Source: Clytia hemisphaerica (lineage: Eukaryota). From it: a DNA stretch of 64,000 nt. The notes beneath the pieces were generated by a model. That model made no database searches, was not told where the DNA came from, and saw only the letters and a list, made by a program, of their open reading frames with translations. The translations under genes and the position numbers were made by a program. Within the stretch, counting starts at the first letter, position 1, and the number at the start of each line of letters is the position of its first letter. Below, piece after piece: positions 5,383 through 64,000 of this stretch. Location of the stretch: contig NW_027103286.1 in the NCBI RefSeq assembly GCF_902728285.1, forward strand, positions 3,292,497-3,356,496, written 5' to 3'.

Positions 5383-6424
5383 TATAAATGGGATGCCAGT
5401 TGAAGTTGACATCGAAAAAGGAGCAGATGATCGATTTCATTGTCCAATGTGTACTTGTAGCTACACCAAACGAACCAGGCTGCGACTACATCTCAACAAA
5501 TTTCACGGGCTTTTATTAAGTGACAATCATTTTTCGCAAGCATGTAATTTTCCTGGTTGTAAGGAAAAGTTTTTCAAGAAAAACCTTATGATTGAGCACC
5601 AAAAGAATGCTCATAATATTGAATTTGATGAAAGGAACTTTCAATTCCAATCATTGGAAGAGTTTTACAATTGGAAAGAGCATGAAGAATCATCTAACTA
5701 CTTCTACTTTAAAAAATCTGACAATAAAGACAAAAATTCGTTTTTGTATTTTGTTTGCCATTACAGTAGTAGACGTGATTTACGCAAAGACCAACCCGTA
5801 TGTCCTGCCCTCATCAAAGTGGCAAAGAATGGAAGCAATTTCGATGTTTATTATATAGCCAATCACAATCATATGGTTAGCCTGGGAGACATGTCTCACC
5901 AGAGAGTCAAGTTTGCAAAGATTGACTATGATCGATGGTTAGTTCAATCTATGAATCTCCATGACACAATATACTCTGTTAAAAAGATGAAGGATAAGTG
6001 TAGCTGTGAGGAAGAAAAAATCGGAGAAGATGGTCTTTGCAGTCATATCTATATTTGTGATTGCCCAAGTGAACTCTCTATTTGTAGACATGTTGGAAAA
6101 ATCATTGTAAAGCGTTCGAAAAAACAGAAAATAGTCAACGAGGAAATAGCTCGTCAAGAAATTTTACAAGTGTCCCAACATATGATCACTTCTGAAGAAA
6201 GGGAAGAAGCAAGTACTGTTCAGAATCAAGAAGAGCTTTTAATGAAACAACAATTTGTCGCATTATTAGATCATATGAAATCGTACACTGACTGTCCAGC
6301 ATTCACCAAAGACAAAGTAGAAGCAATGATTCATAAACTAAACACTCTGAAACAAGAAATGGACGGAGAACTCTCTATTGCATATCCTTGCCCTGTTTTT
6401 TGGCCATCTTCGACGGTAGAATAA
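5383..6424 (+). CDS. Zinc-finger gene A terminal exon: second C2H2 pair, FLYWCH/WRKY-GCM1-type finger (FLYFVCHYSS...CPALIKV...ANHNH) and Cys-rich tail
   Basis: ORF 5393..6424, acceptor cgttttag at 5382 in phase with the previous exon; FLYWCH-like motif read directly; paralogous to 8112..9127. Confidence 0.6.
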
Positions 6425-7103: not shown

Positions 7104-7236
7104 GTAAGAACTTATCATTTCATTTTTAGAAATAAAGAAATGCATGTATATTGTACGATGGCTCTGAAAGCGGTTTTATTCTCTTTTTCAAAATTTCTCC
7201 GTTCCTTTTAATGAAAAGGAGAAGTGAAATATGAAA

Positions 7237-7340
7237 GGTGAACTTTTTTCTCCTTTTAACACAAAAGGTGAACTTTTTTCTCCTTTTAACACAAAAAGGT
7301 GAACTTTTTTCTCCTTTTAACACAAAAGGTGAATTTTTTT
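7237..7340. repeat. Tandem ~30 bp repeat (aaaaggtgaacttttttctccttttaacac), 4 copies, in the intron of zinc-finger gene B
   Basis: Direct reading. Confidence 0.8.
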
Positions 7341-7736
7341 CACTTCACCTTTTGACAAAATGGAAATAGGAATTCTAAGGGAATGCACACGTGTGTGGAC
7401 AATCATTCGTGTTAAATATGTACAGTACTAGCTAATAGCCAGGCCATGACTTGATGATAACCTTTATTAGATTTCCCAGAAACAAAACGAGGGGGGAAAA
7501 ATGAAGTAAAGCCGAATGATAGAAGTGAATCTCCTATGTAGAATTTGAAGCAAATTGTTTTCTACATAAGTTGCGCGGCCCGCATGGTTTTTGTATACAA
7601 ACGCCAGATTAAAGATGGTCCGAAGACAACGGGAAATATTAAACTTTTCCTCATCAACTCACGATTAAGGTTCAGGTTAAAATCATGAAATTCAAGGTTA
7701 AAATGCATGACGACTAGTCTAAAAATCCAAATCCAG

Positions 7737-7935
7737 GCGATAAAAAAATTCACCTTTTGACAAAAGGTGAAAAAAATTCTCCTTTTGACAAAAGGTGAAA
7801 ATAATTCTCCTTTTGACAAAAGGTGAAAAAAGTTCTCCTTTTGACAAAAGGTGAAAATAATTCTCCTTTTGACAAAAGGTGAAAAAAGTTCTCCTTTTGA
7901 CAAAAGGTGAAAGAAATTCTCCTTTTGAAATTCAC
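7737..7935. repeat. Tandem ~33 bp repeat (ttctccttttgacaaaaggtgaaaaaaa, with palindromic core caccttttgacaaaaggtga), 6 copies, related to the 7237 array
   Basis: Direct reading; creates the spurious minus-strand ORFs 7562..7954 and 7750..8058. Confidence 0.8.
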
Positions 7936-8111
7936 TTCTCCTTTTGTTAAACAATAGAACCTATTGTTTGTTTTAAAAGGAAAAGAGAATTTGAAATGGA
8001 GAGGAAATTCTCCCTCAGAGCCATCGTAATATTGTCCCGATTTTCTTTCTTTTATCATCCTAGCTTAATAATGTTGCACAATCTCTCTAAGCTAATAAAT
8101 TTTCTCTTTAG

Positions 8112-9127
8112 TACGGAAAATGGAGAGAGTACGATCAATGTGGAGCAAGGAGTTGACAACAAGTACCATTGTTCACAATGCCCCAAAATGTATACAAGAA
8201 ACCATAGGCTGAAACTTCATGTTCAGCAAGCACATGGGTTGCCAAGCACCAAAGATCGTCACAAACAAGCTTGCGATGAACCTGGTTGTCAACATACATT
8301 TTATAAGAGGAAGGATCTGGTTCAACATCAAAAGATTGCTCATAAAATTGAGTTTGATGAAAGAAACTTTCAATTTGATACCATGGAAGATTTTTATCAT
8401 TGGAAAGAACAGGAGGAAATTTCGAATCATGTTTATTTTACTAAACAAGGTAGCAAAAAGAAGGGAACAACCACCTACCTTTTCTGTCAATTTGATGGCC
8501 ATATTCACTCGCACAAAAAGAAAGGAGAGCCTCACCGAAAGACTGATCGCAGACAGACTTACGGCGTACTAAAAACAGGGTTGATATGTCCAGCTAGAAT
8601 AATAGTTACAGAGAAAGCCACTACTGTCGAGGTTGAATATATTGCAACACACAATCATGACGTGAAGCTTGAAGATACGAAACATCAGTCCCTTAAAATC
8701 GGCAAAAATGTGAGCAATGAATGGTTTGTGCATTCTTTGAACTTGCCAGGAGTTTCTTATACAGTCAAAAAGATTGTCGACGATTGTCTTTGCGAAGAAG
8801 AAAGAACGGAGAACGACCTGTAGCCATTTGTACACATGCAACTGCTCATGCCCGCTCCCTATTTGCAAACATGTGTTCAAAGTTAATTTCTCTTATAAAA
8901 GACCTAAAAGGAAGTCGAAAAAGCAATCGCAAATTGTCGAGGACAACTTTCAAGAAGAAGAAGATCTTATAGATTACGATACAAAAGAGCAATATTTGAA
9001 TATGTTGGAACATTTCAAGAAATACGCGGAGAATCCCTCTTTTACGGATGAAATGATGGAACTGCTAACTCAAGAATTGAATGAAATAAGACTTAAAACT
9101 GAAGCGCTGCTTTCTACTTCCACCTAA
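8112..9127 (+). pseudogene. Zinc-finger gene B module exon (C2H2 pair + FLYWCH-type finger + Cys-rich tail); the reading frame breaks at about 8818-8822 (probable 2-bp deletion, ctgt[gc]agcc); possibly a pseudogene, a truncated protein or a sequence error
   Basis: ORF 7996..8823 (frame 1) continues as ORF 8774..9127 (frame 2); by alignment to gene A (EDGLCSHIYICDC vs ENDL*/TTCSHLYTCNC) the shift sits at CTGTAGCC. Confidence 0.5.
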
Positions 9128-14081: not shown

Positions 14082-15482
14082 ATGTTATTGAGTTGTATAA
14101 GTAATTTACGTTTTTTGTTATCTTAATCTATTTTGCTGGTTCTCTCTCAACTCATGACTGTCACATGTTTCTTCTTTAAATTCAAATCAAAGTTAATCGC
14201 CTTAAGTCGTCATTTGATTTCTCAAATTGAGCTGTGTTTTGATCTTATGTTTTTAGCAGTCAATAAGGCTATAATTGTATCCATGTCACCATGTCAAACA
14301 AAATATAGTATCTACAATAATCCTAAATATATTCCCATCTCAATGGAAACCTTTCTTCCTATAGAAAATCAAAAATAGGAAAATTCTTTTTCTTGTTCAT
14401 TTATTAAATATTTTATGTTTTGATACTTTCGTATATGACGTCATAATGCTCATAACTGAGTTATTGCAAATGATAACTTTATATAAAAAGTTTGACTAAA
14501 GTTATTCTTCCAAACATTTGATATAAATATCTCCGTAGGCTGGGAGCGTAGGTGATTAAAATGCGGTCAACTGCTGTGCAACACTTGAGTCCAATTCAAA
14601 GTATATCTCTTTTTCTCTGCCTGGAACAATTTGCGTCGTTTATGACTTAGTCACATAGATGGGATTCATGTAGGCGTTTTTCTTTTCGCTCGGCGAGGCA
14701 AGGAAAAGTCATGAAATATATGTGTTGCTATAAAATCTACAGTACGATTATCGAAAATTCTAAAATTTGACGGTGACTTTTGACACCAGCCTGAAATAGA
14801 CCCTGTTTTAATTTAATACATTTTTGTCAGATACTAGCTATCTTATTGGACCAAAGTTCCGTATGAAATGACACTTTCTTGCAAAATTATGTACAAAATT
14901 TTGAACTTCTTGAGTAGAATCATGGTAGAATGGTTTTCTAACATCTTCCACTCTCTAGCAGAGAGCACACCCAATGGCTAAATTGGAGGTAAAAATCTTT
15001 ATTTGAGTCAGGGTTGTACAATATATATTACATAGTGTACAAAATATACTTTCGAACTCTACTTTTTCTGAGTGTTTTTCTGCTGTTTCTTTAAAGTTCT
15101 TACTTCAATTCCCTCTATTCTTTCTTGGTAAGCCTCCATATAATCTCAGTTTTCATTTCTAAGGCTTGACCACGCGTAATAATTAGAATAAAATTGATTA
15201 GGCAAAATTAAGGGTGAGGTTTTATTTTTACATAAGTGTTCCCGTTTCATATCAGACACATATTTCATATCAGGACAGTGTCTCCCTTTTGTTATATTAT
15301 ATTGATGTAAGCCCTTTCTGACCAATCTTGCTCCACATCCGTATCAATTCAATGTGAACAAGCCACATGCTAAATGGACCTACCTAACAATGAGAAACAG
15401 ATAAAAATAGAAAAATTGCCAAAGAGTAAGAAAATGCAATGAGGATAGCTTGAAAAGATAGAACAGAGATGAACATTATATA

Positions 15483-31809: not shown

Positions 31810-31888
31810 CGATGTTTCGACAGGCGAATCCAATGTAATCTGGTACGGAAAACAATTTGGTTTCTGATGCAAAATTGCCATTTTCGTA
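31810..31888 (-). CDS. MVP: MVP exon 17 (YENGNFASETKLFSVPDYIGFACRNI); its 3' splice site is the seed of the adjacent minisatellite
   Basis: Acceptor ctttcag, donor G|GTATGT; matches ETAKLFSVPDFVGDACKAIA. Confidence 0.8.
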
Positions 31889-33497
31889 CTGAAAGAAAAG
31901 AGAAAGAGGTCAATTATTTGTATGAAATTGCCATTTTCATACTGAAAGAAAAGAGAAAGAGGTCAGTTATTTGTATGAAATTGCCATTTTCATACTGAAA
32001 GAAAAGAGAAAGAGGTCAGTTATTTGTATGAAATTGCCCATTTTCGTACTGAAAGAAAAGAGAAAGAAGGTCAGTTTATTTGTATGAAATTGCCATTTTC
32101 GTACTGAAAGAAAAGAGAAAGAGGTCAGTTATTTGTATGAAATTGCCATTTTCGTACTGAAAGAAAGAGAAAGAGGTCAATTATTTGTATGAATTGCCAT
32201 TTTCATACTGAAAGAAAAGAGAAAGAGGTCAGTTATTTGTATGAAATTGCCATTTTCGTACTGAAAGAAAAGAGAAAGAGGTCAGTTATTTGTATGAAAT
32301 TGCCATTTTCGTACTGAAAGAAAAGAGAAAGAGGTCAATTATTTGTATGAAATTGCCATTTTCGTACTGAAAGAAAGAGAAAGAGGTCAGTTATTGTATG
32401 AAATTGCCATTTTCGTACTGAACAAAAGAGAAAGAGGTCAATTATTGTATGAAATTGCCATTTTCATACTGAAAGAAAAGAGAAAGAGGTCAGTTATTTG
32501 TATGAAATTGCCATTTTCGTACTGAAAGAAAAGAGAAAGAGGTCAATTATTTGTATGAAATTGCCATTTTCATACTGAAAGAAAAGAGAAAGAGGTCAGT
32601 TATTTGTATGAAATTGCCATTTTCATACTGAAAGAAAGAGAAAGAGGTCAGTTATTTGTATGAAATTGCCATTTTCGTACTGAAAGAAAAGAGAAAGAGG
32701 TCAGTTATTTGTATGAAATTGCCATTTTCATACTGAAAGAAAAGAGAAAGAGGTCAGTTTTTGTATGAAATTGCCATTTTCGTACTGAAAGAAAAGAGAA
32801 AGAGGTCAGTTATTTGTATGAAATTGCCATTTTCGTACTGAAAGAAGAGAAAAGAGGTCAGTTATTTGTATGACATTGCCATTTTCATACTGAAAGAAAA
32901 GAGAAAGAGGTCAGTTATTTGTATGAAATTGCCATTTTCGTACTGAAAGAAAAGAGAAAGAGGTCAGTTATTTGTATGAAATTGCCATTTTCATACTGAA
33001 AGAAAAGAGAAAGAGGTCAGTTATTTGTATGAAATTGCCATTTTCGTACTGAAAGAAAAGAGAAAGAGGTCAGTTATTTGTATGAAATTGCCATTTTCGT
33101 ACTGAAAGAAAAGAGAAAGAGGTCAGTTATTTGTATAGAAATTGCCATTTCGTACTGAAAGAAAAGAGAAGAGGTCAATTATTTGTATGAAATTGCCATT
33201 TTCATACTGAAGAAAAGAGAAAGAGGTCAGTTTATTTGTATGAAATTGCCATTTTCGTACTGAAAGAAAGAGAAAGAGGTCAGTTTATTGTATGAAATTG
33301 CCATTTTCGTACTGAAAGAAAGAGAAAGAGGTCAGTATTTGTATGAAATTGCCATTTTCGTACTGAAAGAAAAGAGAAAGAGGTCAGTTATTTGTATGAA
33401 ATTGCCATTTTCATACTGAAAGAAAAGAGAAAGAGGTCAGTTATTTGTATGAAATTGCCATTTTCATACTGGAAGAAAAGAGAAAGAGGTCAGTTAT
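31861..33497. repeat. Minisatellite, about 30 copies of a ~52 bp unit (gaaattgccattttcgtactgaaagaaaagagaaagaggtcagttatttgtat); on the minus strand each unit is a polypyrimidine tract + CAG + the first 17 nt of MVP exon 17
   Basis: Periodicity read directly; the first unit overlaps the real exon 17 acceptor at 31888-31890. Confidence 0.9.
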
Positions 33498-33664
33498 TCT
33501 ATTTAGTCGGACACTTATATCAAGAATCAGAGCTTTGGTCTGGCCATTTTTTTGTCTGAGCTTCGGGCTGTTCTCGTATCAGCTTATATAAAGAACACGA
33601 CTTTGGTTCTCTTCGGCGAAGTAAAATTTTGGAAATAAGTTAATCGGGTAGTATAAGTACATAC

Positions 33665-39218: not shown

Positions 39219-42200
39219 TCATTTATGATATTCGAGCTTAGCTTTACTGTTTAAGTAATTGATAAAAAATTGAATTTTTCTCTCGTCACTGCCAGAGTTC
39301 ATCCCGACTGTTTTTTCGGCTTCGGCGAATGGCCAATCCACCTCGACTTGTAAAGAATTCACGGTTCTGATGAAGCCGACGCAATCTTTATTGTTTAGTT
39401 CAATGACCAAACCTTGGGAGCCTATCATGACGTCAGGGATTTTCAACTTGAGCGAGAAAAACTTCATGAAAAACTTGATTTGCTGTTCGTAATATAAGGG
39501 AATTGTAGAATCCAATGGTACACTTTGAATCTCAACTACAGTAAATGGTAATGGACAGAGAGGTTTGGTTTTTGATTGATGAAAGAACTTTAAAAACCAT
39601 TTACATTCCGGTACGTCCATATCGATAATCAGTGACTCGAGTCCGACCATTTTATCCGGGATTTTGAGGACTGATGTCACTTTTCCAGAGGAATCAGTTT
39701 TAACAATATTAGTACTGGTAAAAGATGCCTCCATGTCACGTATGTCTTGAGAAGTCAAATGACTACAAATCTCAAACTTTTGGAACGGGTCTTCATCTAA
39801 CTTCAATGATGTGGCGGTGACAAGTTTAAGGAACCCCATGCATTCTTTATGGTGTTTGTTAATGAGCAACGTGTCACCACCCTTCATACAATCCGGTACT
39901 TTTAAAGTCGTGATATTGTTCTTTTCAAGCAAGTAAACAACTTCCTCAATATAATCAAGCTGTATATCAGACTTTACCTCAGCTGTTTTATCAAACGAAC
40001 TATCAACAATAACAAAATTTCGATCAACACCAATCAGAGCGATTAGGTTTTTGAACTCTGGGGTGTCCATATCAATAATCAAAGTATTTTGTCCAATCAA
40101 ACAATTTGGTCTTTTGAGTTTGAGGTTCATATCATTTATGAAGCTTGCTACTTTAATTGGTTCACCTTCCATAAGCAGTCGCTGGATACTTGCTGTAGAA
40201 TATGGACATTCAACTTGATAATTTGAATAATAAATGAAGTTAATTAACTCTCTGCAAGCATCTATAGCTGTGTTGATGATTATAGAGTCAGTATCTACCA
40301 TAGATCTAGGAAGTTCAAGTTTGAGATTCGAAGATTCAATAATGTATTTGATCTGTTCTATATTCTTTTGATTTATTTGACTGTGGATTTCGATCGATGT
40401 CATTGGATAAACTGGTTTCAATTGCAGATCATAAGCAACGTTTATATGATGTCTACACTCTGGAAAATTCGTATTGATAATAATCGAGTCAGTACTAACC
40501 ATACAGCTAGGAATGTCGAGTTTTAAATTCGAGGCTTTGATAATATATTGTATTTTTCTCATATCTGTACGATTGATTTGACTGTGAATTTCGATCGAAG
40601 TTGCAGGATAAACTGGTTGTAATTGCAGATCATAAGCAATGTTTATATGATATCTACATTCGGGGGAATTCGTGTTGATAATTAAAACATCAGAGCCGAT
40701 CATACAATCGGGGACTTTTAATTTCAAATTCAAACGTTTGATAATAGACGGTAATTTATCTTTGATGAATTGTTCATCCTCAGGCTTTAAAAATGCTTCG
40801 CCTGCAGAAAATGGATATTTGACGTAAGAATATGGACAATCCACCGACGCCCTAGTTCTATGGACAATTTTCATAAATTGGATACATTCAGTGTTCCTAG
40901 TGTTAACGACTAAAGCATTAGTGCTTTTCATCACGCGTGGAAGTCTTAATACGAGATTCAGATGTTGAACAAGAAAACTCACGAGGTCGAAGTCAAAATT
41001 AACCTCAAAGGTGATGTCAGCTTTGGCAAAGAGATGATCTTTTGATGTTAACTTCGAATCTCTCAAAAACTTAACCCACTGTTTACATTCTGGTATTGCA
41101 GTATTAATGATGAGACTATCCACGCCCTGCATACATCTAGGTATTTTAAGCTTGAGATTCAAATGTTCGACAAGGAAAACGACATTCCTCAAATCAATTC
41201 CACGAAGATCACATTTGATCTCCACTGTAGAAAATGGGCATTCTACGCGCATGCGTCCTTCATAGAGCGTCGTCATGAATTCTTGGCATTCTGGGATTTC
41301 AGAATTAACGATCAGGCTGTCCGGTCCAAACATACAATCTGGTATTTCAACAACACTATTCTTTACCAGGTACCTTTCAAATCTCCAGGATCTGAAGGGC
41401 TGTACAAATCTTCCATACATGGATGACCTACTCCGATGTAAATCAGATAGCCGTCTGAAGAATTTAATGAAAACGTCGTTCTCGTTCAAAAGTCGACCGA
41501 TACCGAACATAACAGGTGCACAACTTGAAAGCTCGCGGTTTCTTAAATATGGAGAGATTCCTTTAGTAACGTACAAATGAAGTCCTGTCAGGAATTCCTG
41601 AAGAACTAAGTGCTTGTACTGGTAAATCGGTTCTCGCATTTCACCACGATTGTATTTGACGATAAGACCCGTTTGCTCAAGATGTACGGGACATTTCAAT
41701 TGACGAACCTCCTCTTCAGAAAACAATACCTGGTTTTTCATATAAGTTTTTACCGATAAAGTCATCAATGAATAAATACAATCGATCACATTAGCATCGT
41801 CAAGCATTTCAAGCAAGTTGTCATAGCCTTTATTACATAAACCTTGTAAATGTTTCCTCAAAAAGACAAGGCATGCATACATGTTAAGTTCAGTGTAAGT
41901 ATTTAACGGTTTCGTTATGAGATCCTCGCTGTACACGTTACAGATGACCCAAGCAAACACGGGAACGGTAGACATGACTTTCAAATTATGCGATGACCTA
42001 ATGATCTCCTTCACTCGAATGGCTTTTTCAGTGTTCTCGTTAAAGAATTTATCGATGTATTGTTCGACTTCCTCCTCTTTGAAACCGCAAACCTCAACTG
42101 TTTTTATTTTGATCACCTTTCTGCTGGAAATTTTTAACTCCAGAATCTCTTTCTTTACAAAGTCACACGCTTTTGGTCTCCCAGATGCAATACATTTGTG

Positions 42201-43253: not shown

Positions 43254-43454
43254 CTAACCTTCAGTAACAAGTGTATTCTGCTTGATATTATTGATAATAT
43301 CCACTCCATTTAACCTTTCCAACTCCAATTCTAACCGTGACCATTCGACTGTTTTGAGTTGATCCGTTAGATTTTCATCTTCATTCGACGATAAACCAAG
43401 TCGTAAAAGTAATTGATTTTTCTCTTCCCCAATCTTGTTGGATATAATTTCCAA
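43254..43454 (-). other. 66-aa ORF between the HEPN and NACHT genes (…LLLRLGLSSNEDENLTDQLKTVEWSRLELELERLNGVDIINNIKQ…); could be an upstream coding exon or uORF of the NACHT gene, or noise
   Basis: ORF track; possible donor GAAG|GTTAGC at its 3' end and acceptor ttcagtag just upstream of the NACHT ATG. Confidence 0.2.
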
Positions 43455-43499
43455 AACTTCTGTGGTGCAATATATTCCAGGTTCTTAAAAAACAAAATT

Positions 43500-43920
43500 A
43501 AATTCTCTTAAAAAAGACTCCATGACATAGTACGGTGGAGTCTCCATGACTCGAACACGCACGGGGAACACAAATTTGTTCGAGTTAAGGAAATTTCGAG
43601 TTATATAAGGAGTAAGGTATATGAGGAATTGTTAACTGAAAGGACGAAAAAACTTGTTCGAGTTAATGAGACATTCGAGTTATAGAGGTTCGAGTTAAAG
43701 AGACACTGCTGTATTACTCGTTCGAGAAAGCCGGAATAGAAAGCCGGAGAAGAAAGTGTAAGAAGAGAGAGTAAGTGGGTGTTGATTTAGGGTGACTAAA
43801 AATCTATACAGTGCTCCGGTCAACACGCACGCGGAACACAAATTCATTCGAGGTAAAAGAAGACATTTTAGTCTTAGATTTTCGAGTTAAAGAGACTCCA
43901 CTGAATTATGGTGTTAATCT
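43500..43920. repeat. Two inverted copies of the TCGAGTTA SINE-like family (43500-43720 and 43780-43900), between the HEPN and NACHT genes
   Basis: tctccatgactcgaacacgcacggggaacacaaatttgttcgagttaagga... and cggaacacaaattcattcgaggtaaaag...ttttcgagttaaagagactcc. Confidence 0.5.
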
Positions 43921-43948: not shown

Positions 43949-44941
43949 TTAAAATATATGGTGAAAAATACCTTTAAGTGTGGGTAAATTGTCTTTAATA
44001 AATTCATGTTCTTCTTTCAGACGCTCGACAAGGTGATAAAGATTTAAGATGCATTCTTTATTTTCTTGGTGAAAATCTTTGTGGTTCGCCAAGATGGTTG
44101 CATAATCATCCAATCTATCGCTGTGATCTTCAAGCACAATGTCGTGATCTACAAGGGTAGTATCGTGATCTGCAAGGGTAGTGTTGTGATCGCCAAGGGT
44201 AGTGCCATGTTCGTTCAAAGTAGTGTCATGTAAATTTAGGTTTTTATCTAGATTCGAAATTTCTTGGTTCTGAGTCACCATGTCTTTCTTTAATTGAATA
44301 TTATCCGCTCCAACGTGGGAAAGTTCGTTCAATATCTTTTTCGAGAAAAAGGATAAAGATTGAACTACGAGATTATTTGTGACATCAAGTGGTCTGTTTT
44401 TCAATGCGTTGAAATTATAAGTTGTGAGTCCTAAACCTATGACGATATTTTCCCCTTCACTCCATCTCAAGTTGAATTCAACCGAATCAATACTTTTGCC
44501 GTCAGCATGTAAAAGACGATTTCTCCAATCGCGTGCAAGAAGGACAAACGCTGCAGGACTGACGTCGGTTGGATCTAAAGCCTTTTTCCAACCCTTTTTA
44601 GGAGGTGGTAATGTAGTAAAATTGATAATCAAAACAATGATTAGAGTTATGTCAAACGTTTGACTGTCTGTTTGATTTGAGTTTGGGGGAAGTAAAGTAT
44701 CTACTTGGCTTTTCTTTAAAACGCCTTTCTTTGCTAACTGGTTTATTGTACTTTGTTGCTTTCGAAGTTCAATGTTAAGGGCTGTTGAGTTTCTCGGTAA
44801 GCCAACATAATTGGGATCGTTGTAATCATTATGTAAGAGAGCAAGTAGTGCGCCTTTTAGAGGCTCGTGAAGCAGAGTAGCTAATCTAAGCCAATTCTCT
44901 ATCTCTTGAATGGCCTGAGCTACAGTAACGTAGGATGACAT
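43949..44941 (-). CDS. Intronless DZIP3-type HEPN domain protein (330 aa): N-terminal HEPN (FDITLIIVLIINFTTLPPPKKGWKKALDPTDVSPAAFVLLARDWRNRLLHA, Rx4H) and C-terminal 8-aa repeats (DHDTTLVDH...), coiled-coil-like
   Basis: Single ORF; the HEPN_DZIP3 signature (FD..L..L.RN......PP..GW...P...D.S..A.I.R.K..RN...H) read directly. Confidence 0.7.
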   Translation of the reverse strand: MSSYVTVAQAIQEIENWLRLATLLHEPLKGALLALLHNDYNDPNYVGLPRNSTALNIELRKQQSTINQLAKKGVLKKSQVDTLLPPNSNQTDSQTFDITLIIVLIINFTTLPPPKKGWKKALDPTDVSPAAFVLLARDWRNRLLHADGKSIDSVEFNLRWSEGENIVIGLGLTTYNFNALKNRPLDVTNNLVVQSLSFFSKKILNELSHVGADNIQLKKDMVTQNQEISNLDKNLNLHDTTLNEHGTTLGDHNTTLADHDTTLVDHDIVLEDHSDRLDDYATILANHKDFHQENKECILNLYHLVERLKEEHEFIKDNLPTLKGIFHHIF

Positions 44942-56841: not shown

Positions 56842-57129
56842 GTAAGTAATTTCTTTTGATATGAAAGCCAAACTCATTACAATCACGTCAAAACAAACAA
56901 TAATCCTATACCGGATTTTTGATTTAGGGGGCCGGTAATAACCGAATATACCTTTTAAGTCACTTTGAAGCTGAAAGAGTTATGAACACTTTCCATTCTG
57001 TTATGAAAAAGTTTAAACCATTGAAATTGACCTTGGTCTAGAGCTCTAGACGTATCACTGTCTTAGTACACTTCTTACAAAGGATAAAGAACATGAGTGG
57101 CCATATCAAGGTATCTTTCTCCCTCCTAG

Positions 57130-57548
57130 ATGGATCAGGCACCACAACGACCAAAGCACCAGTCACTTCTGCGCCACGTGGCAAGCTCTTTAAACAAGTC
57201 AGCAGCAACAAATGTCTTGGTCATGATCACAACGATAACCTCATCTTCACCAGTCGTTGTCAAACACGCTTTGAAGCAATGGAAGGAAAATTATTCCAGT
57301 CTAATGCACCAGGAGCTAAATGCGCCGAAGCTTTGAGCAACAACAGTGAATCTGGGATTCGTTTCAGAGCTAATTGCGATCAAGGCTTCAGAAAAGTTCA
57401 AAAAGGCAGATATTTTGTCCTTCAACACAAACAAACTGGCAAATGTATTCATCCTAACCGAGGATCATCCAACCCTTCTGATGGAACCAAAGCTGTTATT
57501 TACCATGATTGCAATTCTGGCTCACGTATTCAGTTCAGAGAAGAATAG
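57130..57548 (+). CDS. Astacin terminal exon: Thr-rich linker + ~125-aa Cys-containing C-terminal domain (possible beta-trefoil/lectin-like; not ShK)
   Basis: Acceptor ctccctcctag; ORF through stop TAG 57546-57548. Confidence 0.65.
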
Positions 57549-57983
57549 TTTGACCACTACAGTAATAACCGATGTATTAAATTATAGAGACATTTTTAAG
57601 TGAAAGATAGATTACTACCACCATAAAGTTAAGGGTTTTGTTTTTTTATGCGGTTTATAGCAATACTCTTTTAGAGGTCAGCCCCCTTTTTTCAACGACG
57701 AAGATAAAAACATCTTGAGATATTTACACTAAATTCGGTTTCTGGGTGAACAAGGTCAATCTTTTGTGGTAATGACCAAATAGTTTTAAATCAATTATTT
57801 AGAAAGCTGATCAAAAATCAACAGAACTGCGCCTTTTAACGTACAATTTTTGTAAATTCTTAGTATCTCAATATTTAGATAAATTAAGTAATTATGTGTG
57901 AAGCAAACAAATAAGTAAACTCTGGAAATAAAAAGTGCGAATAATTATATGCAGTAAGGTGGCATGTTAAGAAAATCATGTGT

Positions 57984-58436
57984 TCATTCGATTGGTATGT
58001 TTTCCATCTCAACATCACCATTCGCTTTTCTTTCTGTGTCGTCATCTTGGTGTTCTGGCGGTGCCTCGGTCTCTATTTCTGGCTTTGCAGGTGACGTCAC
58101 TTGAGGTGAAGGGTCCTCGTTGGTTAGCCTCGGTATTACAATACCTTCATCATTGTTATTCACATAATGAGCCCTGGGTAACCCTTCATTATCTAAGTTA
58201 CCTCTTTTACGAAGCATTTCTCTCAAGTGATGTCCGTTCTTAGCTAACCTCCAATTCAACAGGACAACTGCAACGATGAATCCAACCATAAGGGCGAAGA
58301 AGACGAAAAAAATGAGGATCCCAATTTCTTCTTTCTTCACTGAAGTAACAGGCTCCTCGAAATCACACCTGGCTTGTTCAAAGTCGATGAAATCTTTGGC
58401 GAAGTACCCTTCATGTGTCTCCCCATCGTCAGACAC
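57984..58436 (-). CDS. Probable terminal exon of a minus-strand gene: single-pass TM protein (ILIFFVFFALMVGFIVAVVLL) with an acidic C-terminal tail; upstream exons not identified
   Basis: ORF of 150 aa preceded on the minus strand by the acceptor tttctttag. Confidence 0.35.
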   Translation of the reverse strand: MSDDGETHEGYFAKDFIDFEQARCDFEEPVTSVKKEEIGILIFFVFFALMVGFIVAVVLLNWRLAKNGHHLREMLRKRGNLDNEGLPRAHYVNNNDEGIVIPRLTNEDPSPQVTSPAKPEIETEAPPEHQDDDTERKANGDVEMENIPIE

Positions 58437-58789
58437 TAAAGAAAAAGAAAAAGTTTTTCAAATCATTGAATTTGAAATTAAACTAAAGAATCATAAAGAT
58501 ATTATTTTCTGATTCATGACTCTCTTTAATTCGACGTTCTATAATTCAATACCCTCCTTTATTCGATGATATCGAAAGTCAACATTAACGAGAAACTCTC
58601 ATAAACGACGTTCTACCAATTGATGAAAATCCAATGTTTGTTTATGTTTATGTTTCTTTTCTTTAAAGTTGATGTAATAGTCTGGGAGCAGAATTCAATA
58701 TGTCGAGTTATAGACGACTTTGCTTAACCCAGAAGGTGAATGGGGTTGTTATACAAGTAGTGAGATAGTGACAGAGCTGGCACATTTTT

Positions 58790-58925
58790 AACACCTCCAG
58801 CAATGCCAAAAGTGAGTGACACTACAGAAAGTGAGTGACACTACAGAAAGTGAGTGACACTACAGAAAGTGAGTGACACTACAGAAATTGAGTACACGAC
58901 AGGACGTGATTGACACCTTACAGAA
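58790..58925. repeat. Tandem 19-bp repeat (gtgagtgacactacagaaa), about 6 copies
   Basis: Direct reading. Confidence 0.85.
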
Positions 58926-59551
58926 AGTGAGTGTCACCACAGAATAAGTTTCCAGTGGTAAATAATTTTCTAGTTATCTATAAAAGCATTAAAGTCATTT
59001 TCCCTTTCGGAAACACCCGAAAACACCGGAATTTTACCAATGAGTGTTACTAAAATTGAAACACATGGGTCAAATTCAACACCTCCAGCACTACCTAAAG
59101 AATAAGTTCCAAGTGGTAAATGATTTTCTGGTTATCTATTAAAGCACTGAGCTTCTTAGTCTAATTATTCATAAATCATAAAAACTGAGTACATTGTTGA
59201 CAATAACACCATCACCATGTGAAAGATTTTATATATAGGTAATTTTATCAGTAACAGGAAACATATGCGAGATAGCAACAATTCTTATTAAAGAAAATAA
59301 CCAAGCTTATTTCTAATTGTAAAAGATGAATTTGGAAACGTTCGTTTTTTGAAAGTCTTCAAGGCATTTGATTGAAAATTCTTTAAGCGTTTATTAAGCT
59401 TGTACATTTTTTGAGGTAAGCAACACTGCTGCACATGTAAAAATCGAGTCAGGTATAAACAAGTCGAGGTTGATGAATTAAGCAAATCAAAGTGAAATTC
59501 TCAAATTGGAAGAACAAAAGAACATTAAATTTTGATGTTGAAAACTACTTT

Positions 59552-61613
59552 AATAAAGACAAGGAGGAATTTTTTATCATAATTCAACGACCCAACATTT
59601 GAAGTCCAAAGAAAATTCGTGAAGGAGGCTCAGAGGAGTACCCAGAGTCAATTAAATTACCACTATTGTCTAGCCACTGGAAACAGGTGTTCATAGAAGA
59701 TGGTTTTTCGAACTTCACGAAAGTTGTTAATGAACGGGAATCAAACGATATATTTGCAATAGTACGCTGGATGGATGGAGAAATTGAGTATATAAAGTTG
59801 GAACTCTTAGCCGATGATCGATGGATTAAAAATCTAAGATTACAAAAATTTTAGATTGTTGAATAGGGAATGAATGAAATAGTTTATTTGAGAAGAAAAA
59901 CAACAACAATGGTAGCAAAATTCAACGTGGATACACCAAATAAAAGATGTGTAAACGAATGTATTTAAGTTATTACTATAATCCAAAAACCCTATGTAAC
60001 ACTACTTTGAGCTAAAATCGTAGAGGCAATAAAAAGAACTAAGAAAACAAAAATATTTATTGCTTGATGGTAATATATTTCTAGCTTATAAAAACAATGT
60101 TATCATTTACAAGGATCAAATCTCATTCTTTCATTGCATCATTTGGAATTTGTCGATTAATTAGAAAGCGACGTTTTTCAACAGCAAAATCTAATGCTTC
60201 TTCAAAATCCATATCTTCCTCATCTCTAACCCTTTGTAAAGTTTCCATCACAGATTTATGTGTTTTATCCTTTTCATTGCTCGAAGAAAAAGGATTTTAT
60301 ATTTATAAATCTCATGAATTGATAAGTCAGTCTCTTGACATTCGTTCAACATGCTCTCCCAAATATTAAATGTTTCTTTAACACCTTGAGATTCTTCACT
60401 ATCACTGGACATGGGCTCGCTGTCTGTAAAGTCTTCATCAGACTCTTCATCTTCTTCTTCAGATTCTTCAGGGTGAGCCTTTGCAACATGTCGATTATAA
60501 TTGCTTTTATTGGAAAAAGTCTTTTCGCAAATGTCGCATTCATACATCGTGTTTCTCCCGCCGGTTTTAAACTTATTTGAAGAAGTAGCATCCTTACTTA
60601 CGAATTTATATGCAAAACACAAGAGTAATCCGATATCGGGTTTCTCTTTAGGAGCCTGGTTTCTCTCTAAGATCTTTGTTTCTTCCAGATTACCTCCTAG
60701 TCTTTATTGGTCCACGTTCGTTTCTTGGTCCGGGACTAGCTTGAGAAATCTAGTCTTACTTGATCCTCTTTTGGGACTCCAGTAGTTCTTTACCTAGTCC
60801 TTGTTAGTCCCTTTTTGAGACCAACCAATTATTATTGGTGGCTGCAAAAAGTAATCCCTTTTTGTGTCGACATAGTCCCTTTTAGACTTCTATTAGGACT
60901 ACCCGACTACCTTCCTGTTTCGGACTACTTAGTTTTGATAAACCTTTTTCGGAATTAGCTAAATCCTGTTTTGGATACCCAATTTAAGCTTCATGAGTAT
61001 CTAATCCTCTTTTGTATCTACATAGTCCTAGCTTAATTATCCTTAGGATTAACGGGACTACCTAATCCTTCTTTAGAACTAACCAATCCTTATTGGGATT
61101 GCCAAATCCCTCTTTGGGATCAACTAATCCTCATTTGAGATTACCTGATCCCTCTTTAGGATCAACTAATCCTCATTTAGGATTACCTAATCCCTCTTTG
61201 GGATCAGCTAATCCTCATTTAGCATTCCCTAATCCTTCTCTGGGATCAACTAATCCTCATTAGGGATTACCTAATCCCTCTTTGGGATTACCTAGTCCCT
61301 CTTTGGGACCAACTAATCCTCGTTTAGGGACTAGCTTGAGAAATCTAGTCTTACATGATCCTCTTTTGGGACTATGTAGTTCTTCACCTAGTCCTTGTTA
61401 GTCCCTTTTTTGAGACCAACCAATCGGAACTGCGTGATTCTAGTTAATCCCTCTTTTAGGATTACTTAATCACTAGTTGGATCCTTTCTTCCAATTCATA
61501 TCAAAGACTCATGGTATGTTGTTGTTGTTGTTTCCTTTTTCTTTTCTTTTCTTTTTTTTTTTTTACGCGTTTTTTGTTTGGTGTGGGATTTTATTATTTT
61601 GTTAGTTACACTC
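59552..61613. repeat. Left arm of a giant inverted duplication (at least 2.06 kb per arm; the right arm is cut by the window end, so the true extent is unknown)
   Basis: 59552-61613 is the reverse complement of 61938-64000, read directly; the ORF pairs are identical apart from one homopolymer indel. Confidence 0.9.
60960..61340. repeat. Array of ~25-bp units rich in TAATCC/GGATTA (ggattacctaatccctctttgggatcaactaatcctcattta), bounded by ~100-bp direct repeats (60730-60830 and 61320-61430); mirrored at 62205-62600
   Basis: Direct reading; more than 25 TAATCC hexamers per arm. Confidence 0.8.
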
Positions 61614-61660
61614 AGTAAAAGTCGTAACGACTGCTAAGAAATTAAACTATGATTTAAACA

Positions 61661-61948
61661 ATGGATGTAAAGCTAAAGCATCCTTTTAGTATACTCGTTA
61701 GCTGTTTAAGAGGTGCAGAGAAATCTGTTTTTGCTCAAAATCTTATCAAATACAAAGATGATGTTTTCGATAAAGAGTTTGATAGAATAGTATGGTTGAT
61801 CACCAAGCATCAGGAAGATGCTTATCAATTACTTGAAACGTTAAAGTTGATCGGATTTATATTTATCCCTAAATTTGACCTTCACTGCACTTCTGACGGG
61901 GCCCGGGGCGTAAGCCCCGCCTTTGGCGGGACTTACGAGTGTAACTAA
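61661..61948 (+). other. 95-aa ORF occupying the unique 324-bp spacer between the arms (MDVKLKHPFSILVSCLRGAEKSVFAQNLIKYKDD...); ends in a GC-rich hairpin (gtaagccccgcc...ggcgggacttac) at the spacer/arm junction
   Basis: ORF track and direct reading; no confident homology. Confidence 0.25.
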
Positions 61949-62927
61949 CAAAATAATAAAATCCCACACCAAACAAAAAACGCGTAAAAAAAAAAAAAGA
62001 AAAGAAAAGAAAAAGGAAACAACAACAACAACATACCATGAGTCTTTGATATGAATTGGAAGAAAGGATCCAACTAGTGATTAAGTAATCCTAAAAGAGG
62101 GATTAACTAGAATCACGCAGTTCCGATTGGTTGGTCTCAAAAAAGGGACTAACAAGGACTAGGTGAAGAACTACATAGTCCCAAAAGAGGATCATGTAAG
62201 ACTAGATTTCTCAAGCTAGTCCCCAAACGAGGATTAGTTGGTCCCAAAGAGGGACTAGGTAATCCCAAAGAGGGATTAGGTAATCCCTAATGAGGATTAG
62301 TTGATCCCAGAGAAGGATTAGGGAATCCTAAATGAGGATTAGTTGATCCCAAAGAGGGATTAGGTAATCCTAAATGAGGATTAGTTGATCCTAAAGAGGG
62401 ATCAGGTAATCTCAAATGAGGATTAGTTGATCCCAAAGAGGGATTAGGCAATCCCAATAAGGATTGGTTAGTTCCAAAGAAGGATTAGGTAGTCCCGTTA
62501 ATCCTAAGGATAATTAAGCTAGGACTATGTAGATACAAAAGAGGATTAGATACTCATGAAGCTTAAATTGGGTATCCAAAACAGGATTTAGCTAATTCCG
62601 AAAAAGGTTTATCAAAACTAAGTAGTCCGAAACAGGAAGGTAGTCGGGTAGTCCTAATAGAAGTCTAAAAGGGACTATGTCGACACAAAAAGGGATTACT
62701 TTTTGCAGCCACCAATAATAATTGGTTGGTCTCAAAAAGGGACTAACAAGGACTAGGTAAAGAACTACTGGAGTCCCAAAAGAGGATCAAGTAAGACTAG
62801 ATTTCTCAAGCTAGTCCCGGACCAAGAAACGAACGTGGACCAATAAAGACTAGGAGGTAATCTGGAAGAAACAAAGATCTTAGAGAGAAACCAGGCTCCT
62901 AAAGAGAAACCCGATATCGGATTACTC

Positions 62928-63428
62928 TTGTGTTTTGCATATAAATTCGTAAGTAAGGATGCTACTTCTTCAAATAAGTTTAAAACCGGCGGGAGAAACA
63001 CGATGTATGAATGCGACATTTGCGAAAAGACTTTTTCCAATAAAAGCAATTATAATCGACATGTTGCAAAGGCTCACCCTGAAGAATCTGAAGAAGAAGA
63101 TGAAGAGTCTGATGAAGACTTTACAGACAGCGAGCCCATGTCCAGTGATAGTGAAGAATCTCAAGGTGTTAAAGAAACATTTAATATTTGGGAGAGCATG
63201 TTGAACGAATGTCAAGAGACTGACTTATCAATTCATGAGATTTATAAATATAAAATCCTTTTTCTTCGAGCAATGAAAAAGGATAAAACACATAAATCTG
63301 TGATGGAAACTTTACAAAGGGTTAGAGATGAGGAAGATATGGATTTTGAAGAAGCATTAGATTTTGCTGTTGAAAAACGTCGCTTTCTAATTAATCGACA
63401 AATTCCAAATGATGCAATGAAAGAATGA
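62928..63428 (+). CDS. Arm-encoded 166-aa protein: single C2H2 finger (YECDICEKTFSNKSNYNRHVAKAH) + poly-acidic Ser/Glu stretch; mirrored copy 60248..60622 (-) is truncated by a 1-nt homopolymer difference (a4 vs a5 at ~60268/63283)
   Basis: ORF pair from the track; C2H2 consensus read directly. Confidence 0.45.
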   Translation: MCFAYKFVSKDATSSNKFKTGGRNTMYECDICEKTFSNKSNYNRHVAKAHPEESEEEDEESDEDFTDSEPMSSDSEESQGVKETFNIWESMLNECQETDLSIHEIYKYKILFLRAMKKDKTHKSVMETLQRVRDEEDMDFEEALDFAVEKRRFLINRQIPNDAMKE

Positions 63429-63696
63429 GATTTGATCCTTGTAAATGATAACATTGTTTTTATAAGCTAGAAATATATTACCATCAAGCAATAAATATTT
63501 TTGTTTTCTTAGTTCTTTTTATTGCCTCTACGATTTTAGCTCAAAGTAGTGTTACATAGGGTTTTTGGATTATAGTAATAACTTAAATACATTCGTTTAC
63601 ACATCTTTTATTTGGTGTATCCACGTTGAATTTTGCTACCATTGTTGTTGTTTTTCTTCTCAAATAAACTATTTCATTCATTCCCTATTCAACAAT

Positions 63697-63885
63697 CTAA
63701 AATTTTTGTAATCTTAGATTTTTAATCCATCGATCATCGGCTAAGAGTTCCAACTTTATATACTCAATTTCTCCATCCATCCAGCGTACTATTGCAAATA
63801 TATCGTTTGATTCCCGTTCATTAACAACTTTCGTGAAGTTCGAAAAACCATCTTCTATGAACACCTGTTTCCAGTGGCTAGACAA
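63697..63885 (-). CDS. Arm-encoded 62-aa ORF (MSSHWKQVFIEDGFSNFTKVVNERESNDIFAIVRWMDGEIEYIKLELLADDRWIKNLRLQKF); identical mirrored copy 59666..59854 (+)
   Basis: ORF pair; possibly an exon or a small domain protein. Confidence 0.3.
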   Translation of the reverse strand: MSSHWKQVFIEDGFSNFTKVVNERESNDIFAIVRWMDGEIEYIKLELLADDRWIKNLRLQKF

Positions 63886-64000
63886 TAGTGGTAATTTAAT
63901 TGACTCTGGGTACTCCTCTGAGCCTCCTTCACGAATTTTCTTTGGACTTCAAATGTTGGGTCGTTGAATTATGATAAAAAATTCCTCCTTGTCTTTATTA

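Follow-up and report, generated by a model that had tools for sequence, protein, structure and literature searches.

Maverick/Polinton elements have terminal inverted repeats at their ends, with a target-site duplication of 6 bp on either side. Long inverted repeats containing short tandem repeats are found in Drosophila Foldback (FB) elements and in Tetrahymena Tlr1, and the arms of FB consist almost wholly of tandem repeats that reach the termini. The palindromes of primate sex chromosomes have kilobase arms that are more than 99% identical around a unique spacer; because gene conversion from arm to arm is able to maintain such identity, low divergence need not mean youth. Daniell reportedly described, in 1976, incomplete adenovirus particles with left-end inverted duplications. 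Copy-back and snap-back genomes repeat one of their ends as an inverted duplicate beyond a turn-around point, so that a highly symmetric palindrome arises whose short centre is non-complementary (PMC13506859). The tandem arrays of baculoviruses known as hrs serve as replication origins and enhancers (PMC4535591), and Tlr1 is Polinton-related (PMC4028283).

Here we describe a palindrome at the end of a 64,000-nucleotide stretch of Clytia hemisphaerica DNA (the window), which we read, with confidence slightly above even, as a genuine defective, non-autonomous Maverick/Polinton-derived element with very long inverted repeats almost back to back. Elements of this kind are known, but its structure is an unusual variant. 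The inverted repeat consists of the following parts.

59551..61613, no strand: left arm, whose outer limit is set by the window end and not by biology
61614..61936, no strand: unique spacer of 323 bp, whose sole internal symmetry is a terminal hairpin
61937..64000, no strand: right arm, which runs off the window end, so that the outer ends and the full arm length lie beyond 64000

Comparison of the left arm with the reverse complement of 61937-64000 over 2064 nt gave an arm-to-arm identity of 99.7% for the part visible in the window (at least 2.06 kb). The earlier note had described a giant perfect palindrome with arms of at least 2 kb, a 324-bp spacer, and a single difference between the arms, an A-homopolymer that truncates one ORF copy. 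The inverted repeat and the frameshifting homopolymer indel (near 60270, in the left copy) are both present, but the palindrome is not perfect, since five substitutions accompany the indel (left-arm positions 61075, 61104, 61207, 61223, and 61326), and the spacer is one base shorter than had been counted. All five substitutions fall within or adjoin a tandem array, and in at least four of the six differences the derived state is in the left arm, raising the possibility that they reflect polishing rather than evolution. The arms are at least 2.06 kb long and probably reach at least 2.85 kb. No further copy of the element was found within the window, and there was no evidence of gene conversion between the window arms. 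Compared with large genomic palindromes such as those of primate sex chromosomes, this one is far smaller and consists of mobile-element sequence.

The near-identity of the arms and the position of the right arm at the window end would also be expected of an assembly or library artefact, in which a foldback or template-switch chimera (produced, for instance, by whole-genome amplification, or present as a chimeric long read where a contig ends) gave two arms where only one is real. Of the six differences, one concerns homopolymer length and the other five lie in a tandem array, a setting prone to polishing errors, which would fit the same explanation. Simple strand-to-strand foldback reads, however, give either no spacer or an adapter-only one, whereas the spacer here is 323 bp long, asymmetric, and derived from coding sequence; a scan of the palindrome centre with a set of adapter sequences found no adapter-like sequence above shuffled controls. 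Moreover, five substitutions to one indel is not the pattern of long-read errors, which are indel-dominated, and it is the left arm, with unique flank as its anchor, that has the derived states, not the terminal right arm. We regard a chimera as unlikely.

The spacer links the palindrome to Polintons. It contains two features.

61661..61858, plus strand: 5′ remnant of a packaging-ATPase gene, approximately 66 codons, Pox_A32/Polinton-type, with a degenerate Walker A motif
61859..61936, no strand: GC-rich, non-homologous filler of approximately 78 bp, ending in a 27-nt hairpin at the right-arm junction

The 95-aa ORF previously noted in the spacer does exist, at 61661-61948, but it is not supported as a gene; it begins with the ATPase remnant and runs on into the filler. 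An exhaustive phmmer search with this ORF returned 14 matches at E ≤ 1e-3, among which P0139 has a Pox_A32 Pfam match and aligns to the ATPase of a Polinton encoding pPolB and integrase with an E value of 9e-30. The loci whose ATPase is matched by P0139, L076 and L077, also encode an rve integrase and a 1390-aa DNA_pol_B_2 protein. When the ATPases of L079 and L080 were searched against the spacer with tblastn (E values of 3e-11 and 7e-10, respectively), the homology ended at approximately 61858. In the alignment of the remnant with its relatives (alignment A2), the Walker A motif reads SCLRGAEKS instead of G-x4-GK[ST] and is dead. The remnant, which corresponds to the N-terminus of an A32/FtsK-type packaging ATPase of pPolB- and integrase-bearing Polintons, reads inward from the left arm, with a leader of 47 bp between the arm end at 61613 and the ATG at 61661. 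At the other end of the spacer, the GC-rich hairpin GTAAGCCCCGCC-TTT-GGCGGGACTTAC (61910-61936) directly abuts the right arm, as the earlier note had it, and is unique in the window. Folded as DNA, the 71-nt segment 61880-61950 gave -14.7 kcal/mol with a z score of -2.3. Microhomology at the junction was not above chance.

The element differs from a complete Maverick/Polinton in lacking pPolB, integrase, capsid, and protease, with its interior reduced to 323 bp. Neither DNA_pol_B_2 nor rve integrase was detected among the ten window ORFs scanned by Pfam (seven of them at least 120 aa long), and tblastn with all ORFs of L076, a full Polinton, gave no window match to the integrase, the Polinton capsid proteins (double and single jelly-roll) or the maturation protease. 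The one match from that search paired a 77-aa ORF within the L076 polymerase gene with 43432-43611, inside a NACHT ORF of the window, with an E value of 8e-4; this marginal, off-target match was discounted. The window arms are also far longer than the terminal inverted repeats known from Polintons and are gene-bearing.

Relatives in coral and marine metagenome contigs combine a short-palindrome array, an ATPase gene, and an acidic-domain gene, as the window does. Four of them have long inverted repeats (0.45-1.65 kb) as their boundaries, another likeness to Maverick/Polinton elements.

L018: inverted repeat of approximately 0.7 kb, 78% identity
L052: inverted repeat of 0.45 kb, 92.5% identity
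L078: inverted repeat of 1.65 kb, 90.6% identity, containing a Fic ORF
L080: inverted repeat of 0.52 kb, 90% identity

In all four, the gene that follows the left repeat on its inner side is the ATPase gene, in inward orientation, which is also the arrangement in the window. The distance from the repeat end to the conserved ATPase start is 8 bp in L080 and 47 bp in the window. Compared with the window arms, the inverted repeats of the relatives are short, reaching no more than 1.65 kb, and have diverged further, to 78-92% identity. In the coral relatives, the acidic-domain gene is a single-copy, interior gene outside the inverted repeats, and the arrays occupy the stretch from the repeat to the ATPase gene; the layout of the window is therefore not simply the family norm.

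Each arm of the palindrome carries one gene and one pseudogene.

59552..59854, plus strand: left copy of a partner-gene pseudogene, the C-terminal ~95 codons, with an in-frame stop and loss of the CxxC...HxC motif
60123..60547, minus strand: left copy of a C2H2/acidic/four-helix gene, frameshifted and split into ORFs of 124 and 42 aa
63003..63428, plus strand: right copy of the C2H2/acidic/four-helix gene, intact, 141 aa, with a Pfam zf-C2H2 match
63697..63999, minus strand: right copy of the partner-gene pseudogene, identical to the left copy

The C2H2 and acidic character of the protein first reported at 166 aa per arm holds, but that length depended on a TTG start; the homologues place the start at the ATG at 63003 (MYEC...), giving 141 aa. 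The left copy is frameshifted because the homopolymer run near 60270 is one base shorter. In the intact protein, a disordered acidic linker joins a single C2H2 finger to a conserved C-terminal domain of four helices, for which the AF2 model has a pLDDT above 90 (residues ~61-133). The domain is marked by KDxTHK...EEDMDFxEA...KRRFLI, as in small relatives bounded by terminal inverted repeats, and it matched no known fold in the libraries searched. The gene family consists of 13 proteins and 73 loci; 12 of the 13 homologues are full-length, with BLASTP identities of 48-78% (50-86% in alignment A1). A dN/dS of approximately 0.16-0.20 for the 141-aa gene against L002 and L003 indicates that the family is under purifying selection. 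In many coral contigs, the gene for the C-terminal domain lies directly 3′ of a C2H2-fused A32-like ATPase gene.

What had been listed as a 62-aa ORF in each arm is no gene but the C-terminal remnant of a partner gene of 200-256 aa, in which an in-frame stop has arisen and the Cys/His motif has been lost. The 200-aa protein of L002 matches the pseudogene in tblastn with 32% identity and an E value of 5e-10, and a profile built from four partner proteins matches it with an E value of 5e-6. As the pseudogene is identical in both arms, its decay is older than the duplication.

The remaining features of the arms are tandem arrays, to which we add an array just outside the visible left arm.

58809..58944, no strand: 19-bp tandem array of approximately seven copies, unit AAAGTGAGTGACACTACAG with the core palindrome AGTGACACT
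60732..61424, no strand: left array block, with direct repeats 60732-60829 and 61327-61424, degenerate units, and a regular 21/42-bp array at 61054-61319
62126..62818, no strand: right array block, with direct repeats 62126-62223 and 62721-62818, 21-bp units at 62231-62461, and degenerate units up to ~62720

Each arm has 11 in-phase 21-bp units built on a 14-bp quasi-palindrome, GGAyTA-NN-TArTCC; in the right array the unit is GGATTAG[G/T]T[A/G]ATCC followed by an A-rich 7-mer. The higher-order period is 42 bp. The ~25-bp unit proposed earlier does not hold, while the ~100-bp direct repeats said to bracket the array are confirmed (~98 bp, spaced 595 bp apart, ~94% identity). The regular array extends over approximately 275 bp (62222-62496 and 61054-61319), and the degenerate units occupy approximately 700 bp. 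The share of an arm taken up by arrays is ~13% for the regular part and 34% at most, on the inner side. GGAYTANNTARTCC occurs eight times in the window, always inside the two arrays, against an expectation of 0.01. The density of TAATCC/GGATTA pointed out in the earlier note is real, with 17-18 hexamers per ~800-bp array region compared with 23 in the other ~62 kb.

This enrichment, together with arms that are long inverted repeats containing tandem repeats, could suggest a foldback transposon of the Drosophila FB type or a host cis-regulatory module of TAATCC sites for K50 homeodomain proteins (Otx/Pitx/Bicoid), as had been proposed. Neither agrees with the rest of the locus, and we consider both highly improbable. 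Of the 2064 bp or more in an arm, the regular array takes up only ~275, at the inner end, whereas the arms are mainly genic, with one gene and one pseudogene in each. Every site is a quasi-palindrome of 14 bp, the phasing is a strict 21 bp, and the surroundings are a Polinton-derived cassette. In L001 the homologous array, which precedes the cassette genes, is likewise made of 21-bp units; these contain GGACTAccTAGTCC, in which both half-sites are changed together to GGACTA/TAGTCC, and the coral loci use unrelated palindromes such as TGCAGAAAATCTGCA, in units of 20, 31, or 41 bp at the array position corresponding to that in the window. Short-palindrome arrays are located upstream of cassette genes in L001, L005, L015, L029, and L078. 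The idea that the arrays are host homeodomain targets is thus not supported by the sequence comparison, and the locus is not a homeodomain-regulated host locus. The earlier suggestion of a recent inverted duplication or foldback transposon with protein-binding repeats stands in outline, as an inverted duplication of a mobile element, with a Polinton-derived cassette and an ATPase stump in place of an FB-type structure.

Under the Polinton-derived reading, the GGATTAGGTAATCC arrays may be the element's own cis-acting sites, similar to an origin, a packaging signal, or an enhancer, and a dimeric element-encoded factor is the predicted binder. With a spacing of 21 bp, or two helical turns, every site would face the same side of the DNA. 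A point against the reading is that the recognition helix of the zinc finger is identical in the window and L001, although the array half-site differs by one base. Like baculovirus hrs and iteron-type arrays, these are tandem imperfect-palindrome units near the genes of a virus-derived element; hrs differ in their ~64-bp units with a 24-bp palindrome, compared with 21 bp and 14 bp here, and have no sequence similarity to the window arrays. The 19-bp unit also occurs (18 of 19 positions identical) 3′ of the zinc-finger gene homologue in the metagenome contig L003, and on the basis of this shared sequence the 19-bp array is probably part of the same element as the palindrome. If the arm continues, its mirror would be expected at approximately 64607-64742, beyond the window. 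The core gene set of Polintons is not known to include the C2H2/acidic gene, the partner gene, or the phased palindromic arrays, and the accessory module of one-finger C2H2/four-helix protein and arrays was recognised by none of the libraries searched.

Each arm would then be an end-proximal cassette comprising, from the outside inward, a probable subterminal 19-bp array, the decayed partner gene, the zinc-finger gene, and the phased 21-bp array, and the 323-bp centre (47-bp leader, ~66 ATPase codons, ~78-bp filler) would be the sole interior left. Such a structure may have formed by a strand switch of the copy-back or snap-back kind that turned around in the ATPase gene, or by an internal deletion, accompanied by filler DNA, of an element whose inverted repeats were long and gene-carrying from before. 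These routes are closely related, and either fits the observations.

The order of events also bears on a host-level explanation, namely a recent fold-back inverted duplication inside a long-dead relic of the element by a template switch at a replication fork or hairpin-primed break repair, in which case the palindrome would say nothing on the element's own biology. The cassette had decayed before it was duplicated (identical partner pseudogenes, dead Walker A), the arms are 99.7% identical, and a GC-rich filler with a small junction hairpin is typical of template-switch repair; a single event would suffice, consisting of a break in the ATPase gene, filler synthesis, and fold-back to 61613. Yet the chance-level microhomology at the junction, the arm boundary just 5′ of the ATPase start as in the repeat of L080, and the recurrence of long inverted repeats in the element family speak for a structure of the element itself. 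We judge the host-level event improbable, and the Polinton-derived element with very long inverted repeats remains our preferred reading.

A related and rather doubtful proposal is that the locus is an integrated snap-back or copy-back, "defective-interfering-like" genome of a Polinton-like virus, in which one end was duplicated as a palindrome, the phased array (resembling an hr or a packaging signal) and the small C2H2 regulator were retained twice, and replication or packaging could be provided in trans. The geometry would fit that of copy-back genomes, an inverted duplication of one end around an internal turn-around, provided that the arms end at the element termini. Unlike those genomes, the palindrome has been integrated into a eukaryotic chromosome, and its cassette was partly decayed before the duplication.

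Our analysis removes the tempting but wrong reading of the locus in terms of developmental regulation (Otx/Pitx) and flags it for checking of assembly correctness. If the palindrome is real, Polinton-derived elements can make inverted repeats that are several kilobases long, carry genes, and enclose an almost empty core, and they have a conserved accessory module of a C2H2/four-helix protein and helically phased arrays, in which the two half-sites vary together from one relative to another. Such a module could well be studied as a candidate system of element-specific recognition between protein and DNA, acting as an origin, packaging signal, or enhancer. Should the defective-interfering-like proposal be true, the locus would be a direct footprint of Polinton-derived elements replicating as linear, strand-switch-prone viral genomes, and it would point to undescribed ATPase-plus-array satellite elements in marine invertebrates.

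A Polinton-derived cassette makes up the palindrome, at whose centre stands what is left of the first inner gene of the element. The giant inverted repeat described in the earlier note was borne out by repeat finding and global alignment, with the following layout.

59551–61613, left arm of the inverted repeat
61614–61936, spacer between the arms
61910–61936, 27-nt hairpin at the end of the spacer
61937–64000, right arm of the inverted repeat

The spacer measures 323 bp rather than 324 bp. Each arm is 2064 nt, a visible length whose outer limit on the left is imposed solely by the right arm reaching the window end, and no further copy of the arm is present elsewhere within the window. The arms had been called perfect apart from the length of one homopolymer. 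That indel (near 60270) is real, but five substitutions also separate the arms (left-arm positions 61075, 61104, 61207, 61223, and 61326), all of them within the tandem array or adjoining it. Of the six differences, at least four (the indel, 61104, 61207, and 61223) are derived in the left arm, with the right arm showing the repeat-consensus or homologue state.

Each arm carries a gene for a C2H2/acidic/four-helix protein (the zf gene), which begins at ATG 63003 and encodes 141 aa, not the 166 aa first read; as first suspected, one copy is broken by the homopolymer difference, the left copy being frameshifted. Thirteen homologues were found in ENA, JGI, and Logan assemblies, of which 12 are full-length (48–78% identity by BLASTP, 50–86% in the protein alignment) and the thirteenth is distant and partial. 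All of these proteins combine a single C2H2 finger with an acidic linker and a C-terminal domain that is strongly conserved and that AlphaFold models with confidence as a four-helix unit. The dN/dS of the gene is 0.16–0.20 against its two closest DNA relatives. When the model was compared with PDB and BFVD structures, nothing reached E ≤ 0.001; a scan of IMG/VR for the family gave no relatives, and look-ups of three exact protein sequences (zf protein, spacer ORF, and a 1216-aa NACHT ORF of the window) gave no match. A C2H2 recognition code read from the finger was unconvincing and is kept as inference. The second ORF of the arm, read earlier as a 62-aa ORF, corresponds to the C-terminal third, now decayed, of a partner gene of 200–256 aa, which is convergent to the zf gene in the relative contigs L001 and L002. 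The window copy has lost the conserved CEGC...H.C motif and contains an in-frame stop. This decay is the same in both arms and is thus older than the duplication. Pfam searches of the partner protein and most neighbouring ORFs gave no match.

The units of the array in each arm are 21 bp long and show a 42-bp higher-order periodicity, in place of the ~25-bp unit first estimated. Eleven units (62231–62461) are in perfect register, each reading GGATTAG[G/T]T[A/G]ATCC followed by an A-rich 7-mer. The 14-bp quasi-palindrome GGAYTANNTARTCC occurs eight times in the window, in the arrays only, against 0.01 expected. The direct repeats of about 100 bp noted with the array are two 98-bp copies at 595-bp spacing, which together with degenerate units complete a block of ~700 bp. 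Arrays also lie upstream of the zf gene in the closer relatives L001 and L005, and L003 has degenerate units. In L001, the 21-bp units carry GGACTAccTAGTCC where the window has GGATTAggTAATCC, so both half-sites have changed together. The position upstream of the cassette genes is conserved although the sequences in corals are wholly turned over (periods of 20, 31, or 41 bp, core TGCAGAAAATCTGCA). The strict 21-bp phasing, the quasi-palindromic core, the coordinated half-site change, and the conserved position fit putative element-specific sites for a dimeric factor, which would act in the manner of baculovirus hrs or iterons (PMC4535591). The K50-homeodomain targets proposed earlier do not fit the phasing, the core, the joint half-site change, or the turnover in corals. 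Defining features of an FB-type foldback transposon or a homeodomain module are lacking in the structure, and we regard such an origin as highly improbable.

The 95-aa ORF of the spacer stood as an ORF, and it is the relic of an ATPase N-terminus, with homology ending at ~61858. Word-indexed protein search, Pfam, and PHROGs gave no match for it. Relatives came solely from an exhaustive phmmer search, covering 1.84 billion representatives, which returned 14 matches at E ≤ 1e-3; apart from the repetitive P0135, all of these are the N-terminal ends of small ATPases and have Walker A at the aligned position. One of them, P0139, carries a Pox_A32 Pfam match and matches the ATPase of the coral loci L076/L077 with an E of 9e-30; a scan of IMG/VR with P0139 gave no relatives. 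Since L076/L077 have genes for an rve integrase and a 1390-aa DNA_pol_B_2 as well, they are full Mavericks/Polintons; a parvovirus-type phospholipase A2 domain protein (PF08398) is encoded there at 14123–14479. By tblastn, the ATPases of loci L079 and L080 match 61661–61852 (E 3e-11) and 61670–61858 (E 7e-10), respectively. Walker A of the spacer copy is dead (SCLRGAEKS). A narrow ATPase profile of the coral copies ranked the spacer ORF first at a non-significant E of 0.23, and direct BLASTP against the relative locus L029 was not significant.

The final ~78 bp of the spacer are GC-rich filler ending in the hairpin, which lies at the arm boundary, as the earlier note had it. Microhomology at the junction was not above chance and was set aside. 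A Helitron 3' hairpin was rejected as the origin of the GC hairpin because the CTAA terminus it would need falls within the duplicated arm and the next base is C, not T, and priming by fold-back at the 12-bp hairpin was rejected because the palindrome is centred elsewhere. Adapter-like sequence was not found in the spacer. The lack of an adapter, the asymmetric and coding spacer, the 5:1 ratio of substitutions to indels, and the fact that the derived states sit in the left arm, which is anchored, and not in the terminal right arm all argue against an assembly or library chimera, which we consider unlikely.

A metagenome scan for the zf family yielded 73 loci, mostly from coral-associated metagenomes, and 887 members of the ATPase family were detected, annotated proteins from Oculina and Stylophora among them. 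The order that recurs in the coral loci starts with a palindromic-unit array and an A32-like ATPase fused to C2H2, followed by an acidic protein that shares its C-terminal domain with the zf protein and then by a basic repeat protein. Four relatives have inverted repeats as their boundaries.

Inverted repeats bounding relative loci (locus, length, identity, content)
L018, ~0.7 kb, 78%, tandem repeats inside
L052, 0.45 kb, 92.5%
L078, 1.65 kb, 90.6%, Fic ORF inside
L080, 0.52 kb, 90%

The ATPase gene comes first inside the left repeat in each of these loci and is read inward. In L080, 8 bp separate the end of the repeat from the conserved ATPase start, and in the window 47 bp separate the end of the arm from the ATPase ATG. 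We somewhat favour an element-level structure, with very long gene-bearing inverted repeats and a lost interior. Either a strand switch of the copy-back or snap-back kind, with its turn-around in the ATPase gene, or an internal deletion with filler DNA in an element already bearing long repeats could have produced it. Duplication of a dead relic by host-level fold-back would need a single event and would suit the filler and hairpin, but the arm boundary would then lie beside the ATPase start by coincidence, and this reading appears improbable.

L078 (7305–20595), L018 (1149–6335), and L052 (1–2949) are small coral elements bounded by inverted repeats, with the C2H2-fused A32-like ATPase, acidic-domain, and basic repeat proteins and no polymerase or integrase in reach; a Pao-type LTR retrotransposon is inserted in L078. 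Telomere-like TTAGGG/CCCTAA short tandem repeats occur in or near the inverted repeats of some coral elements, in L012 (2502–2572), L018 (1685–1760 and 5865–5920), and L019 (3117–3174).

The element very probably reaches beyond the left end of the visible arm, to ~58769 or further, because L003 and the window share a 19-bp unit (18/19 identical, window array 58809–58944); the coding region is 78.5% identical. A ~290-bp direct duplication at 58769–59150 (58769–58812 against 59057–59100, then ~50 bp more), whose first copy holds the 19-bp array, lies between host exons (57093–58436) and the visible arm. The window is eukaryotic, with apparently metazoan gene content that includes NACHT, HEPN_DZIP3, and F-box ORFs. 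Its GC content is 32–39% across 2-kb windows and ~35% overall, and Rfam and tRNA scans gave no match. Other features of the window are as follows.

5393–6424, paralogue of the C2H2-containing ORF at 7996–8823
7234–7341 and 7742–7928, two 28–30-bp tandem arrays, unit containing the palindrome CCTTTTGACAAAAGG
7996–8823, C2H2-containing ORF continuing to ~9127, directly downstream of the second array
31872–33498, 53-bp satellite, 31 copies, 95% identity
39219–42869, minus strand, uninterrupted NACHT ORF of 1216 aa, internal 201-bp repeats at 40273–40746
43949–44941, minus strand, HEPN_DZIP3 ORF adjoining the NACHT ORF

The array followed by a zinc-finger gene at 7742–8823 repeats the order seen in the arms, with an unrelated protein family. 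The satellite accounts for a GC-skew spike of 0.30 at 32–34 kb, and the NACHT and HEPN_DZIP3 pair is of the invertebrate innate immunity style.

The accessory module (zf/four-helix protein, partner protein, and phased palindromic arrays) is not recognised by Pfam, PHROGs, PDB, or BFVD. Maverick/Polinton in the strict sense is defined in PMC5499653. Polymerase, integrase, and capsid genes were sought and are absent from the window, and for this reason its structure falls outside the strict group, being a structural variant derived from such an element. Just past the partner gene, L001 carries a Cys-rich ORF (3130–3336, MIGCSGYPHCKNS...), which may be a topoisomerase-III-type zinc finger. If it is, L001 would lie in eukaryotic chromosomal DNA, ending soon after the partner gene.
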